This document shows, in pieces, positions 16,793 through 63,554 of a stretch of DNA of 64,000 bases; position 1 is the stretch's first letter, and each line of letters begins with the position of its first letter. The stretch lies in sequence record PZ295659.1; one strand, given 5' to 3'. The translations under genes were made by a program, and so were the position numbers. The stretch is from a phage. The notes under the pieces are model-generated. The model did no database searches. It had not been told where the DNA came from and saw only the letters and a list, made by a program, of their open reading frames with translations.

Positions 16793-16844
16793 CCTCCAAG
16801 TAGTTGATGAATGTATAGTATCAAAGTCCTTGGAGGAAGTAAAC
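16793..16844 (-). promoter_or_regulatory. early-promoter-like element with inverted repeat CCTCCAAG/CTTGGAGG including the denV SD
   Basis: gtaaac at 16839-16844; inverted-repeat arms 16793-16800 and 16829-16836. Confidence 0.45.
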
Positions 16845-23677: not shown

Positions 23678-23747
23678 ATTATTACCTTTCAATTGGTGGT
23701 TTATTATCCAATGAGAGCATTATACTCTGCTCTCAAGAGTTTGTAAA

Positions 23748-24042: not shown

Positions 24043-24375
24043 TTAATTTTTCCAACTTAACAACTTGTAGTGCCCTTCATTCGTACGAGGTTTATCCCAA
24101 GAAATACTAATATATGATTCACTGTCAATAGAAGTCGCCGGGTTTTTCTCTACCGTAAGACCTTCACTTTCCAGCCATTCAATAGTATTTGCGCATAAAT
24201 CAGAAGAACACCTCATCGGAAACCTGCAAGATTTTTCACCTTTAGCTGCAGTGTTATACATCTTTTCTAAAATACGCTTTTGCACGTTTTTAAAAATAGT
24301 TTCAGCGGATTCTTCAGATTTTTTATTCAGTTCAGTATAAAGACTCATAACATTCTTCTCATTAATAGGGCTCAT
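24043..24375 (-). CDS. hypothetical protein
   Basis: 110-aa ORF. Confidence 0.45.
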   Translation of the reverse strand: MSPINEKNVMSLYTELNKKSEESAETIFKNVQKRILEKMYNTAAKGEKSCRFPMRCSSDLCANTIEWLESEGLTVEKNPATSIDSESYISISWDKPRTNEGHYKLLSWKN

Positions 24376-24405
24376 AATATCTCAATCATAAGCCCATGTA
24401 AACAA

Positions 24406-24699: not shown

Positions 24700-24740
24700 T
24701 TGATAGTTGTATAGTACCACAGAAGAACAGGGATGTAAAC
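24700..24740 (-). promoter_or_regulatory. early-promoter-like element
   Basis: gtaaac at 24735-24740 and -10-like tatagtacc. Confidence 0.35.
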
Positions 24741-28189: not shown

Positions 28190-28229
28190 TGATAGGATGA
28201 TAGTAACACACCATCATCCTTATGTAAAC
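28190..28229 (-). promoter_or_regulatory. early-promoter-like element with inverted repeat AGGATGAT...ATCATCCT
   Basis: gtaaac at 28224-28229. Confidence 0.4.
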
Positions 28230-58688: not shown

Positions 58689-60257
58689 ATGACTACTATC
58701 AAAACTAAAGCTCAGCTCGTAGACAAATGGAAAGAACTGCTGGAAGGTGAAGGCCTGCCGGAAATCGCTAATAGCAAGCAGGCTATTATCGCTAAAATCT
58801 TCGAAAACCAGGAAAAAGATTTCGAAGTATCCCCTGAATATAAAGACGAGAAAATCGCTCAGGCATTTGGTTCTTTCTTGACCGAAGCTGAAATTGGTGG
58901 TGACCACGGTTATAATGCTCAGAACATCGCAGCAGGTCAAACCTCTGGTGCAGTAACCCAGATTGGGCCGGCAGTTATGGGTATGGTTCGTCGTGCTATT
59001 CCTAATCTGATCGCTTTCGATATTTGTGGTGTTCAGCCTATGAACAGCCCTACCGGTCAGGTATTTGCTCTCCGTGCAGTATATGGTAAAGACCCTATCG
59101 CTGCTGACGCTAAAGAAGCTTTCCATCCGATGTATGCTCCAGACGCGATGTTCTCTGGTCAGGGTGCTGCTAAGAAATTCCCAGCTCTGGCTGCTAGCAC
59201 ACAAACCGTTGTAGGTGATATCTATACTCACTTCTTCCAGGAAACTGGTACTGTGTATCTACAAGCTTCCGCTGTAGTAACAATTGATGCTGGCGCTACC
59301 GATGCAACTAAACTGGATGCTGAAATTAAGAAACAAATGGAAGCTGGTGTACTGGTAGAAATCGCTGAAGGTATGGCTACTTCTATCGCTGAACTTCAGG
59401 AAGGTTTCAACGGTTCTACCGATAACCCATGGAATGAAATGGGCTTCCGTATCGATAAACAAGTTATTGAAGCTAAATCTCGTCAGTTGAAAGCAGCTTA
59501 CTCCATCGAATTGGCACAAGACCTCCGTGCAGTACACGGTATGGATGCTGATGCTGAACTGAGCGGTATTCTTGCTACTGAAATTATGCTGGAAATCAAC
59601 CGTGAAGTTGTTGACTGGATTAACTACTCCGCTCAGGTTGGTAAATCTGGTATGACTAATATCGTTGGTTCTAAAGCTGGTGTATTTGACTTCCAGGACC
59701 CGATTGATATCCGTGGTGCTCGTTGGGCCGGTGAAAGCTTTAAAGCTCTGTTGTTCCAGATTGATAAAGAAGCAGTTGAAATTGCTCGTCAAACCGGTCG
59801 TGGTGAAGGTAACTTCATTATCGCTTCCCGTAACGTAGTTAACGTACTGGCTTCAGTTGATACTGGTATTTCTTACGCTGCACAGGGTCTGGCTTCTGGT
59901 TTTAATACCGACACTACTAAGTCTGTATTTGCCGGTGTACTTGGTGGTAAATACCGCGTATACATCGACCAGTATGCTAAACAGGATTACTTCACCGTTG
60001 GTTACAAAGGCGCTAACGAAATGGATGCAGGTATTTACTATGCTCCTTACGTTGCACTCACCCCACTGCGTGGTTCCGATCCTAAGAACTTCCAGCCGGT
60101 AATGGGCTTTAAAACTCGTTACGGTATCGGTGTTAACCCGTTTGCTGAAAGTTCCCTGCAGGCTCCAGGCGCTCGCATCCAGTCCGGTATGCCGTCTATC
60201 CTGAACAGCCTTGGTAAGAACGCTTACTTCCGCCGTGTATATGTAAAAGGCATCTAA
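58689..60257 (+). CDS. 23: major capsid protein gp23
   Basis: 522 aa; MTTIKTKAQLVDKWKELLEGEGLPEIANSKQAIIAKIFENQEKDF... very close to T4 gp23. Confidence 0.97.
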   Translation: MTTIKTKAQLVDKWKELLEGEGLPEIANSKQAIIAKIFENQEKDFEVSPEYKDEKIAQAFGSFLTEAEIGGDHGYNAQNIAAGQTSGAVTQIGPAVMGMVRRAIPNLIAFDICGVQPMNSPTGQVFALRAVYGKDPIAADAKEAFHPMYAPDAMFSGQGAAKKFPALAASTQTVVGDIYTHFFQETGTVYLQASAVVTIDAGATDATKLDAEIKKQMEAGVLVEIAEGMATSIAELQEGFNGSTDNPWNEMGFRIDKQVIEAKSRQLKAAYSIELAQDLRAVHGMDADAELSGILATEIMLEINREVVDWINYSAQVGKSGMTNIVGSKAGVFDFQDPIDIRGARWAGESFKALLFQIDKEAVEIARQTGRGEGNFIIASRNVVNVLASVDTGISYAAQGLASGFNTDTTKSVFAGVLGGKYRVYIDQYAKQDYFTVGYKGANEMDAGIYYAPYVALTPLRGSDPKNFQPVMGFKTRYGIGVNPFAESSLQAPGARIQSGMPSILNSLGKNAYFRRVYVKGI

Positions 60258-60281
60258 TCTTAATTGATTAAATCTTATTTT

Positions 60282-60309
60282 GGGAGACTTCGGTCTCCCA
60301 TTTTGGTTT
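60282..60309 (+). terminator. rho-independent terminator after gene 23 (GGGAGAC-TTCG-GTCTCCC + U-rich tail)
   Basis: Hairpin 60283-60300 followed by attttggtttt; identical hairpin after gene 8. Confidence 0.75.
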
Positions 60310-60578
60310 TATTTCTGTGCAATTTCGATGTAAGTTTTCAAAATATTTTGCCAATTAGGCATACCTTCTTGGACATATGCTAGAGAACCGTCTTTGTTTT
60401 TGAATGATGCAAGTTTATCAGTGGCCCAATAACCTTTAGCTCGAGCTTCAGAATCAACTTTCATCCATACTTTGTTGAAGGCATTACCATTAACTTTTGC
60501 ACCATATTTTTCTACCAACTTAACTGCTTCAGCTTCCAGAACTTTTAAAGTATCTCGTAAGAAACGTGCTTTAGTCAT
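60309..60578 (-). CDS. hypothetical protein, opposite-strand gene between 23 and 24
   Basis: 89-aa ORF with ATG start and its own early-promoter-like element; no GIY-YIG or HNH motif. Confidence 0.5.
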   Translation of the reverse strand: MTKARFLRDTLKVLEAEAVKLVEKYGAKVNGNAFNKVWMKVDSEARAKGYWATDKLASFKNKDGSLAYVQEGMPNWQNILKTYIEIAQK

Positions 60579-60589
60579 TTTGTTTACTC

Positions 60590-60638
60590 CTCTGTAGTTG
60601 ATAAGTCTATAGTATCACATACTAAATACGTTGTAAAC
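60590..60638 (-). promoter_or_regulatory. early-promoter-like element driving the 60309-60578 gene
   Basis: gtaaac at 60633-60638; core nearly identical to the element at 23985-24016. Confidence 0.45.
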
Positions 60639-60644
60639 AATCTT

Positions 60645-60652
60645 TATAAATA
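60645..60652 (+). promoter_or_regulatory. T4 late promoter TATAAATA for gene 24
   Basis: Exact TATAAATA 28 nt upstream of gene 24 ATG. Confidence 0.65.
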
Positions 60653-60679: not shown

Positions 60680-61963
60680 ATGAGTAAAATCCAAAAATTA
60701 TTGCGTGAATCTACAACGTCTACTAGCAACTCAATTGGTCGCCCAAATCTCGTTGCTTTGACTCGCGCTACGACTAAATTAATATATTCTGACATTGTAG
60801 CAACACAAAGAACTAATCAACCTGTTGCTGCTTTTTATGGTATCAAATATCTTAATCCAGATAACGAATTCACATTTAAAACTGGTGCTACTTATGCAGG
60901 CGAAGTTGGATATGTAGACCGAGAAAAAATTACTGAGCTCACAGAAGAATCAAAAGTCACACTAAATAAAGGCGATTTTTTCAAATATAATAATATCGTC
61001 TATAAAGTGTTAGAAGATACACCATTTGCAGATATTCAAGAAAGTGATCTAGAATTAGCTCTTCAGATTGCGGTCGTTCATTTAAAGGTACGGTTATTTT
61101 CAGATGCAGCGGTAACAAGCAAATTTGAAAGCTCTGGTAGCGAAATTTCTGATGCAAGATTCCAGATTAATAAATGGCAAACTTCGGTCAAATCTCGTAA
61201 ACTTAAAACTGGTCTTACAGTTGAATTAGCGCAAGATTTGGAAGCGAATGGATTTGATGCCCCTAACTTCTTAGAAGATTTGCTTGCTACTGAAATGGCT
61301 GATGAAATTAATAAAGATATTCTTCAGTCTTTAATTACTGTATCGAAACGTTATAAAGTTACTGGAATTACTGACACCGGATTTATTGACTTGAGCTATG
61401 CATCCGCTCCAGAAGCAGGTCGTTCATTATATCGAATGGTGTGTGAAATGGTATCACACATTCAAAAAGAGACAACTTATACTGCAACGTTTTGTGTAGC
61501 CTCAGCTCGTGCAGCTGCTATTCTTGCTGCTTCCGGTTGGTTGAAACATAAGCCAGAAGATGACAAGTATCTTTCACAAAATGCTTATGGATTCTTGGCA
61601 AATGGATTACCTCTTTACTGCGATACCAACAGTCCGTTAGATTATGTTATTGTGGGTGTTGTAGAAAATATCGGCGAAAAAGAAATTGTAGGGTCCATCT
61701 TTTATGCTCCATACACTGAAGGAGTAGATTTAGATGACCCGGAACATGTCGGTGCATTTAAAGTTGTAGTTGATCCAGAAAGCTTGCAACCGTCTATCGG
61801 ATTATTGGTTAGATACGCTTTATCAGCAAATCCTTACACAGTAGCAAAAGATGAAAAAGAAGCGAGAATAATTGATGGCGGGGATATGGATAAAATGGCA
61901 GGACGTTCAGACTTGTCTGTTTTACTCGGTGTTAAATTGCCAAAAATTATCGTTGATGAATAA
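60680..61963 (+). CDS. 24: capsid vertex protein gp24
   Basis: 427 aa, same length as T4 gp24; gp23-like fold. Confidence 0.95.
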   Translation: MSKIQKLLRESTTSTSNSIGRPNLVALTRATTKLIYSDIVATQRTNQPVAAFYGIKYLNPDNEFTFKTGATYAGEVGYVDREKITELTEESKVTLNKGDFFKYNNIVYKVLEDTPFADIQESDLELALQIAVVHLKVRLFSDAAVTSKFESSGSEISDARFQINKWQTSVKSRKLKTGLTVELAQDLEANGFDAPNFLEDLLATEMADEINKDILQSLITVSKRYKVTGITDTGFIDLSYASAPEAGRSLYRMVCEMVSHIQKETTYTATFCVASARAAAILAASGWLKHKPEDDKYLSQNAYGFLANGLPLYCDTNSPLDYVIVGVVENIGEKEIVGSIFYAPYTEGVDLDDPEHVGAFKVVVDPESLQPSIGLLVRYALSANPYTVAKDEKEARIIDGGDMDKMAGRSDLSVLLGVKLPKIIVDE

Positions 61964-61993: not shown

Positions 61994-62992
61994 TTATGAT
62001 ACTAATTCAATCCATGCAGGGCGCAGAACATCTTGCACCATTCGGACTAATTCTTTCTTAACAAGATTCGGATTATCAGATGATGTTAATACAATACCTT
62101 CACGAGAAGTTTCTTCCAGAATATCTTGAACAGTCAATCCCATCACTTTACCAAAATCTTTTGGCGTTACAGTCCCAATCTTAGAAATCACATTATTAAC
62201 ACGATTTAATGTAACATAACAAGCTAGAACATCAAGCAAGTTTTTGTCAATTTCGGTTAATGGAACCTGAGTTTTAATAGGCTTATCAGACTTTTTCTTT
62301 TCACTGAATTTAGAGTTCTTGCACTTAATAGCTACACGAGTACCGTTTGGCAGCCATTTAGGGAAACAAGGCTTCAGAACATAACCTTCTGCCGTATTAT
62401 CGCCAATAACATTAGCATCAAATACACAATTATTTGCTTCTACAAGGTCTTCTGACGCAGTAGCATTATAAGCGGCTAAGATTGAATCAAGGTCATTTGG
62501 AATCATGATAAGAGAATCAAATGTTCCACGTCCAAGCATTGGTGCCATTTTAAAACCGAATTCATTACAGAAATCTTGCATTTCGTAATCAGTCAAATAC
62601 GTATTATCACCACTTTCTGTATTGATAAGGATATCGAACACATAAAAATCTTTTTCACCGTAGTCAACACCTTTCTGGATTCCACCACCAGCGAATTCAC
62701 CGAATACTTGATATGATACTGCTCGATCTGCGTGCATTAATTCCTGAACGGCTTTAATAGCTTTATCATACTTCTTGAGTACGATTTCATAGCCGTAAAA
62801 ATCTTCTGCTGGAAGAATAGGGCCTGTGCGCTTAGCGCATGTGACGTTGTCACGTTCAATTATTAACGAGAAGTTGGTCCCATGGATTTTCTCACGTGCT
62901 ACCCAAACACCAGTAGTCAAACCATTAGTGTAGAGTTTTTCAATAAACTTAGAGTTGTAGTGGTTTTCAAGACTGCTGTATTTCTTAAACAT
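61994..62992 (-). CDS. rnlB: RNA ligase 2
   Basis: 332 aa; [20 protein letters not shown]...[11 protein letters not shown] contains the ligase KxHG nucleotidyl-lysine motif and matches remembered T4 Rnl2. Confidence 0.9.
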
Positions 62993-63363: not shown

Positions 63364-63554
63364 TTCTTCACCTTTTTGTTAATAAAACGTTTACGGTATA
63401 CAACTTTTTCTTTTGCTTTAAACTTTGACCGAGCTGTCTCAGCTTTAGTCCATAATAATCCAACTTCTTTAGGTTGTAAACCGATTTTTTGAGCAATTTC
63501 TACGAATGAAAATCCCGCCTCATGTAATGTATAAACTTCAACTTCAGCTCTCAT
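63360..63554 (-). CDS. hypothetical small basic protein with helix-turn-helix-like segment
   Basis: Track start is TTG; ATG at 63554 (MRAEVEV...); AGFSFVEIAQKIGLQPKEV resembles an HTH. Confidence 0.4.
   Translation of the reverse strand: MRAEVEVYTLHEAGFSFVEIAQKIGLQPKEVGLLWTKAETARSKFKAKEKVVYRKRFINKKVKK

Follow-up and report, generated by a model that had tools for sequence, protein, structure and literature searches.

Why should a gene with an early-type promoter lie, on the opposite strand, between two late capsid genes of a T-even phage, and what might its product do? The question arises from a stretch of 64,000 nucleotides (sequence record PZ295659.1; hereafter the window) from a phage that is a Mosigvirus, a T-even of the RB69/JS09/HX01 kind. 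Gene 23 (gp23; 58689-60257) and gene 24 (gp24; 60680-61963) both lie on the plus strand and form the left and right flanks, respectively, of a minus-strand open reading frame (ORF; 60309..60578) that runs from an ATG start to a TAA stop and encodes a protein of 89 aa (10.2 kDa, pI 9.6). A sequence-only reading had noted this ORF in the slot that in T4 holds segD, likewise on the minus strand, and had taken it for accessory or mobile cargo; the ORF and its T4 counterpart lie where that reading placed them, and the cargo interpretation is borne out by an empty slot in several relatives, by swapping of the cassette between genera, and by homologues in unrelated phage families. To the right of gene 24 follows rnlB (RNA ligase 2) on the minus strand, which is an intact 332-aa ORF in the window (61994-62992) and is annotated as two fragments in JS09 (locus L001 1586-2585).

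The inserted unit is compact and sharply bounded. Relative to phages with an empty 23/24 spacer, the whole cassette—promoter, 5′ UTR, and ORF—occupies 60309..60644 on the minus strand, roughly 335 bp between a T-tract and a late promoter. Its left edge is the intrinsic terminator of gene 23 on the plus strand (60281..60310; hairpin 60281-60300), which consists of an 8-bp stem, a UUCG loop, and the T-tract. The stop codon of the ORF overlaps this T-tract, and the gene 23 terminator is thus the downstream boundary of the ORF, as had been proposed. Its right edge is the gene 24 late promoter TATAAATA (60645..60652, plus strand), which stands back-to-back with the promoter of the ORF, only 6 nt separating it from the −35 element on the opposite strand. 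A Shine-Dalgarno sequence, GAGGAG (60587..60592, minus strand), lies 8 nt upstream of the ATG and recurs as GAGGAG or GGAG in orthologous loci. Further upstream, the extended −10 element TG-A-TACTAT (60609..60617, minus strand) is separated by a 17-nt spacer from the −35 element GTTTACA (60632..60638, minus strand), together forming a sigma-70 early promoter of the T4 type with a predicted transcription start near 60602. No late promoter TATAAATA was found on the ORF strand.

The early-promoter-like element that the earlier reading had pointed out, GTTTACA-N17-TG-A-TACTAT, conforms to the T4-type early-promoter consensus TTTACW-N17-TAYWAT (Comeau et al. 2014, PMC4122927). This consensus matches the window eight times, all eight on the minus strand, against 0.33 matches expected from shuffled sequence; an excess of this size, restricted to one strand, argues for a real strand-specific promoter class and against chance. 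The other seven matches, also on the minus strand (1854-1882, 16815-16843, 23719-23747, 24374-24402, 24711-24739, 28200-28228, and 63452-63480), are likely the early promoters of further units in the window. With its GTTTAC −35 element, 17-nt spacer, TG-extended TAnnAT −10 element, and position on the early strand, the unit has the sequence features of a T4-type early unit, and its promoter is conserved in front of both the orthologues and T4 segD. We infer early expression of the ORF from this promoter sequence and from T4 segD, which lies behind a homologous promoter and is early at the RNA level and middle at the protein level, its protein having been detected by mass spectrometry (Wolfram-Schauerte et al. 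2022 supplements, PMC9697503). In T4, an exact early-promoter match, TTTACA-N17-TATTAT (minus strand; locus L007 1254-1282, about 107254-107282 of the T4 record), ends 21 nt upstream of the annotated segD start. Together with the early-RNA class, this match contrasts with a review (Edgell et al. 2010, PMC2988022) according to which segD had no identifiable promoter of its own.

How transcription from this promoter would end is less clear. The terminator hairpin also forms on the minus strand (−13.5 kcal/mol), where it is followed by A-rich sequence and no U-tract, so that it is uncertain whether the early transcript stops there, and RNA polymerase may read on into gene 23 in antisense. Such read-through could be part of what the unit does.

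Databases already list the ORF as a hypothetical protein; the novelty lies in the anatomy of its slot and in its distribution across phage families. Its product is 100% identical to proteins from JS09, HX01, and TU01, shares at least 95% amino acid identity with those of about 117 further records, and matches the phrog_6003 profile, a family of hypothetical proteins, over its full length (E 7.2e-45; residues 1-89 against profile positions 1-90 of 90). The ORF corresponds to RB69ORF188c/189c and is homologous to JS98 orf173 and VR7 ORF190c; a literature search on ORF188c, ORF190c, and orf173 returned nothing relevant. About 238 GenBank phage records carry a member of the family; the window type accounts for about 119 of them, the Dhaka type for 87, and the Gapriver type for 32, and ABPH49 has one as well. 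Every source name but one is 'hypothetical protein'. At the DNA level, the window-type ORF was found in 121 Mosigvirus records. The order of gene 23, minus-strand ORF, and gene 24 is kept across Mosigvirus, Dhakavirus (JS98 orthologue, 34% amino acid identity), and Gaprivervirus (VR7 orthologue, 38%), and recurs in two uncultured T4-like contigs with a duplicated gene 24 (family members P0006, 60% identity, and P0016). Fixed in its genus and syntenic in three genera, the ORF is evidently not a recent insertion in the window genome.

Two side observations belong to these loci. The 90-aa family member P0006 (JGI/ENA contig; L005 5001-5273) is misnamed 'NADPH-dependent curcumin reductase CurA', an evident annotation error. 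Gene 24, single in the window, is tandemly duplicated (425-427 aa paralogues) in JS98, VR7, and two uncultured contigs (L002, L003, L005, and L023), that is, in Dhakavirus, Gaprivervirus, and related uncultured phages.

That the ORF codes for a protein follows from its mode of evolution: pairwise dN/dS within the Dhaka-type group is 0.05-0.13 at unsaturated dS of 0.14-0.69, which indicates strong purifying selection. It also appears to be dispensable. The reference copy in RB69 (L004 2937-3177; NC_004928 109291-109531) contains a +1 insertion amid clustered mismatches and, later, a −1 deletion, and these frameshifts split the ORF into ORF189c and ORF188c; either the gene has decayed in a laboratory strain or the old sequence contains errors. 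Truncated versions of 51 aa are likewise on record, and on the strength of these and the RB69 frameshifts the ORF is counted as dispensable. It is not a T4 gene: the earlier reading would have fallen had the ORF been a conserved T4 gene of known function, and it has no T4 homologue. Neither a paralogue nor a remnant of it was seen in the rest of the window, in 10 kb of T4 sequence surrounding the slot, in CM8, or in the slots of Krischvirus and Pseudotevenvirus. Sequence comparison establishes, then, a genuine protein-coding, apparently dispensable accessory unit with an early-type promoter, inserted in the 23/24 spacer.

Alignment of the 23/24 region across T-even phages, which the earlier reading had suggested as a check, shows how the insertion is bounded. 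Genes 23 and 24 are directly adjacent in related genomes, as is expected for a moron-like insertion. In Tequatrovirus CM8, Jiaodavirus KP17, and a Karamvirus, the spacer measures only 81-85 bp, in which the terminator hairpin is followed, after about 16 nt, by TATAAATA; the insertion in the window is hence bounded by the terminator T-tract on one side and the gene 24 late promoter on the other. T4 carries segD on the minus strand in the homologous slot. Homology with T4 extends through gene 24 up to window position 60631 and returns at 60304, so that segD replaces precisely the ORF and its 5′ UTR, with the promoter kept; the internal Met4 of T4 segD aligns with the ATG of the small ORF. The slot has been seen in four states: empty, promoter and ORF, promoter with ORF and segD, and promoter and segD, the last in T4 and in contig L099, which have segD and no small ORF. 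In other genera the slot has other contents. That of Krischvirus Ec_Makalu_002 (L019 2498-3219) is about 720 bp long, with unrelated plus-strand ORFs of 50 and 65 aa, and that of Pseudotevenvirus Olmo (L020 2584-3219) contains a plus-strand homing endonuclease that overlaps the start of gene 24.

Within the T-evens, the cargo is mobile between backbones. About 33 Mosigviruses carry, instead of the window-type ORF, the Dhakavirus-type allele together with a segD-like GIY-YIG gene. KAW3E185 is one such phage: on a Mosigvirus backbone it has the Dhakavirus-type small ORF and, 3 nt later, a gene for a 219-aa GIY-YIG protein that is 58% identical to T4 SegD. Sliding identity across genes 24 and 23 is 97-100% Mosigvirus-like except in the intergenic control region and at the 3′ end of gene 23, over its final 100 nt or so and the terminator, a pattern that indicates replacement of about 1.2 kb as a block. 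With 95% identity as the lower limit, 33 records match the SegD-like protein of KAW3E185 and about 154 match the gp23 C-terminus of the window; the latter figure is the exact sum of these 33 and the 121 records with the window-type ORF. The reverse combination is seen in the uncultured contig L005, which has a Dhaka/Gapriver-like backbone with a duplicated gene 24 and yet the Mosig-type allele. Allele type evidently does not track the genome backbone, and the two alleles are only 33% identical inside flanks that are otherwise 82% identical. To judge from these alignments, recombination within the conserved regulatory flanks has carried the cassette from one T-even genus to another, in some cases together with a segD-like gene.

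A possible agent of this exchange may have left a mark in gene 23 itself. At 60225..60236 (plus strand), the window has the codons TAC TTC CGC CGT (YFRR), the segD-minus version of a site that lies within the last 30 nt of gene 23 and reads TAC TTC CGY CGY in the 17 distinct segD-minus genomes examined, with one exception. All four of the segD-plus genomes examined (T4, KAW3E185, an IMG/VR contig, and L099) instead read TAC TTT AGA CGN, which encodes the same amino acids. The IMG/VR contig has the small-ORF protein and the ORF-plus-segD arrangement of KAW3E185, and the L099 SegD is 61% identical to that of T4. Between T4 and CM8, the last 150 nt of gene 23 differ solely at the 3 nt that turn TTC CGY into TTT AGA. 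The loci compared at the site were the window, L007 (T4), L008 (KAW3E185), L014/L158, L099, and L147, and the recoded site was scanned for with a degenerate 39-mer, a 14-mer having returned mostly unrelated contigs. The exception is the Gaprivervirus contig L147, which has the recoded site and no segD. Recoding and segD are associated at a one-sided Fisher p of about 7e-4, calculated by hand and uncorrected for relatedness.

The recoded site looks like a homing-endonuclease target with immunity conferred by synonymous recoding, or else like a tightly co-converted marker. A 2018 study by Sokolov and colleagues is said to have found the SegD site identical in segD-plus and segD-minus phages and to have found no homing. 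The TTC CGY to TTT AGA recoding, which tracks segD, is a concrete and testable candidate for the SegD target, and the 3′ end of gene 23 supplies candidate substrates, TACTTCCGCCGT and TACTTTAGACG. Should SegD cut TACTTCCGCCGT and not TACTTTAGACG, the target would be identified and the cassette swaps explained.

The protein family is small and reaches beyond capsid genes. When the window protein and its JS98 orthologue served as queries in word-indexed homology searches, close family members alone came back; a search of IMG/VR for related loci gave only six Dhakavirus loci, and an exhaustive profile search of 1.84e9 cluster representatives brought up no more than a handful that truly belong to the family, adding three small relatives. 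Its other hits were discarded as false positives: P0018, with Ig-like repeats and many weak stretches; P0020 and P0022, which are repeat proteins; and P0021, from an apparently chimeric contig. The distant homologues outside the capsid context are 28-34% identical, of equal length, and share the invariant residues. In ABPH49 (MH533020, 150 kb, classified in Vequintavirinae), the family member lies among small hypothetical genes on the same strand; this phage is labelled 'Acinetobacter phage', and the gene has intergenic flanks of about 350-460 bp per side. In contig L021, which is related to ABPH49, the homologue is part of a long run of small early-type genes. In contig L022, it follows lambda-J-type tail genes, with its own terminator and a TTGACG-17-TATATT sigma-70 promoter both lying upstream of it; the helicase of this contig is 70% identical to those of 42-kb Serratia siphoviruses. 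No nuclease domain was called near any of these non-T4 homologues.

The protein itself offers few handles on function. It is lysine-rich, as had been noted from its translation: 13 of its 89 residues (14.6%) are lysine, compared with 7.2% across the long ORFs of the window. The pI ranges from 8.0 to 9.7 across the family, and no transmembrane or hydrophobic segment was found. K3, F6, G31, N32, N35, and Q70 are invariant in all lineages, and L14, L21, N30, A45, S57, and G64 are nearly so in the family. An AlphaFold2 model built on the family alignment (pLDDT 91.6, pTM 0.80) predicts helices at residues 3-25 and 31-48, a beta-hairpin at 56-60/66-70, and a helix at 76-88. The model of the Dhaka-type protein (pLDDT 83.7) has matching helix boundaries and only isolated bridge residues in the hairpin region; full strands are assigned there in the window-type model alone, and in both models the hairpin is the region of lowest confidence.

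Homology and structure searches, also suggested by the earlier reading, led to no relative of known function by sequence family or by fold. Foldseek against the PDB gave no match for the ORF model, and BFVD yielded a single match, an unnamed 88-aa viral protein of 30% identity that is presumably a family member. A PDB sequence search and PADLOC gave no match, Pfam and NCBIfam none above threshold, Rfam no credible RNA family, and the profiles and folds of characterised anti-phage-defence and anti-defence families none for the ORF protein. Weak matches to DUF4859 (Pfam E 0.003, below the cutoff), to Ca_bind_SSO6904, and to two NCBIfam models were inconsistent among family members and were set aside, as was a match to phrog_8765, 'internal virion protein' (E 0.022), on the same grounds. 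The earlier remark that the protein lacks a GIY-YIG or HNH motif holds: neither is detected by Pfam or NCBIfam, and the family profile misses the SegD proteins of T4 and KAW3E185.

On the best reading, the ORF probably encodes a non-essential early host-directed binding protein, possibly one that acts in counter-defence. During the opening minutes of infection, unmodified host RNA polymerase would transcribe the unit in antisense to the late capsid genes, and the product would be a small, soluble, basic protein of helix/helix/beta-hairpin/helix fold without a catalytic motif. It would bind a host component stoichiometrically, rather than the capsid machinery, and its most likely role would be host takeover or counter-defence. 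A host target is suggested because the family occurs in three unrelated phage backgrounds, its Vequintavirinae-type and Serratia-siphovirus-type homologues lying outside the capsid context, and because T4 and CM8 build the same capsid without the ORF; stoichiometric binding is a likely mode of action since a catalytic motif is absent. Early timing, accessory status, lateral spread, and two alleles that are only 33% identical fit host takeover or counter-defence, while against the reading it must be said that no homology or fold match points to a target. Counter-defence in particular, argued from context—the same timing, status, spread, and deep allelic divergence—can be put forward only tentatively.

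The basic charge fits a nucleic-acid-binding regulator equally well. A protein of this kind might control the phage's own programme, for instance at genes 23/24, or bind DNA non-specifically like T4 MotB. A basic pI of 8.0-9.7 conserved family-wide, the small, helical, and early character of the protein, and a site between divergent early and late promoters that suits local control all speak for such a role, which we regard as unlikely overall. A tie to a segD-type homing endonuclease, with the ORF as its partner, its expression leader, or the landing pad or passenger of a mobile unit, is more doubtful. In its favour, the ORF and the segD-like gene form a single early operon in about 33 Mosigvirus records, with 3 nt from the stop codon of the one to the ATG of the other, T4 segD shares the promoter and start position, and the ORF allele is replaced along with segD. 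Against it, most carriers are segD-minus (121 Mosigvirus records, JS98, VR7, and other Dhaka- and Gapriverviruses), T4 and L099 have segD without the ORF, the non-T4 homologues have no called nuclease domain nearby, and the family profile does not match SegD.

The location within the head module, along with the weak phrog_8765 match (E 0.022), might suggest a capsid-related role, be it as assembly helper, internal head protein, or decoy for capsid-sensing host defences. Such a role is improbable, given that the ORF has an early promoter only and no late TATAAATA on its strand, that no conserved L/I-x-E prohead-protease signal is visible by eye in the family alignment, that T4 and CM8, whose gp23 C-termini are 94% identical, lack the ORF, and that the other homologues occur in early or moron-like contexts. 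It is even harder to regard the ORF as incidental and its early promoter as a source of antisense RNA over gene 23 that delays late gene expression. The hairpin without a U-tract on the minus strand makes read-through into gene 23 plausible, and the promoter is more widely conserved than its cargo, but dN/dS of 0.05-0.13 and intact frames in about 238 records indicate selection on the protein, the Shine-Dalgarno sequence is strong, and the protein family is also found away from any capsid gene. This account seems very improbable indeed.

The host-directed reading can be taken further, as a possibility that at present falls well short of probable. The proteins may constitute a hitherto undescribed family of small, early-expressed phage proteins that share a novel fold and neutralise an anti-phage system, or some other host factor, shared across Enterobacterales, and that are deployed as a plug-in cassette in three unrelated lineages: T-even Straboviridae, Vequintavirinae-like phages, and Serratia-type siphoviruses. 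The two alleles (33% identity) might then be products of an arms race, shuttled between T-even genera by a segD-type homing endonuclease.

Taken alone, the ORF is one more uncharacterised accessory ORF of a T4-like phage; it is the setting that is unusually clean. One and the same 83-bp spacer, set in the genome's most conserved module and present in four states, provides a natural series for the entry and exit of accessory genes and homing endonucleases. The protein is moreover found in about 150 therapeutic-type Mosigvirus isolates, BASEL phages included, and is a tractable candidate for roles in host range or counter-defence.

Among known systems, the internal head proteins of T4 (IPI-III) differ from the ORF protein: they have an N-terminal capsid-targeting sequence ending in L/I-x-E and late expression, whereas the family alignment of the ORF, judged by eye, shows no conserved L/I-x-E motif and its strand no late promoter. 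The small early host-directed proteins of T-even phages (T4 Alc, AsiA, Arn, IPI*, and Acb2; AV110 Emp) are of the same size class, share the early timing predicted for the ORF, have no enzymatic motif, and, like it, correspond to a predicted fold without a relative of known function; they differ in having no sequence or fold similarity to the ORF protein. The Mosigvirus AV110 screen (bioRxiv 10.64898/2026.09.14.751387), whose list runs to 45 genes, took only genes with T4 early homologues, and by that criterion the ORF, having none, would not qualify.

PeSL-flanked ORFan modules are known from T4-type phages (Arbiol et al. 2010, PMC2839356; Comeau et al. 2014, PMC4122927). As in these modules, a small ORF lies behind a TTTACW-N17-TAYWAT promoter, beside a stem-loop, and varies between close relatives, and the recombination junctions of the window cassette fall in conserved regulatory flanks. 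In PeSL modules, however, a composite terminator-promoter motif stands upstream of the ORF in a hyperplastic region, whereas the stem-loop in the window is the gene 23 terminator, lies downstream of the ORF, functions on the other strand, and is set in a conserved head module. With no stem-loop upstream of the promoter, the cassette fits the strict PeSL definition only in part.

The morons of lambdoid phages, known from the work of Juhala and Hendrix in 2000, are autonomous promoter-gene units located between genes that are adjacent in relatives. The window unit is similarly autonomous, dispensable, and laterally spread, and the L022 homologue, with terminator, promoter, and gene after the tail fibre genes, follows this plan. 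The window phage, by contrast, is virulent, and its unit would be expressed early in the lytic cycle and not from a prophage; its GC content, 35.2% against a window mean of 37.9%, differs little. As for a terminator of its own, the window unit has on the ORF strand the −13.5 kcal/mol hairpin with no U-tract following.

A close counterpart is the T4 segD cassette, in which a free-standing GIY-YIG homing endonuclease gene lies between genes 23 and 24 (Edgell et al. 2010, PMC2988022). Slot, strand, promoter architecture, and aligned start codon are the same in both. The cargo of the window is unrelated, only 89 aa long, and without a GIY-YIG or DNA-binding domain; lacking the domain that defines homing endonucleases, the ORF is not one of them. 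A further difference is that some Mosigviruses hold both genes in tandem.
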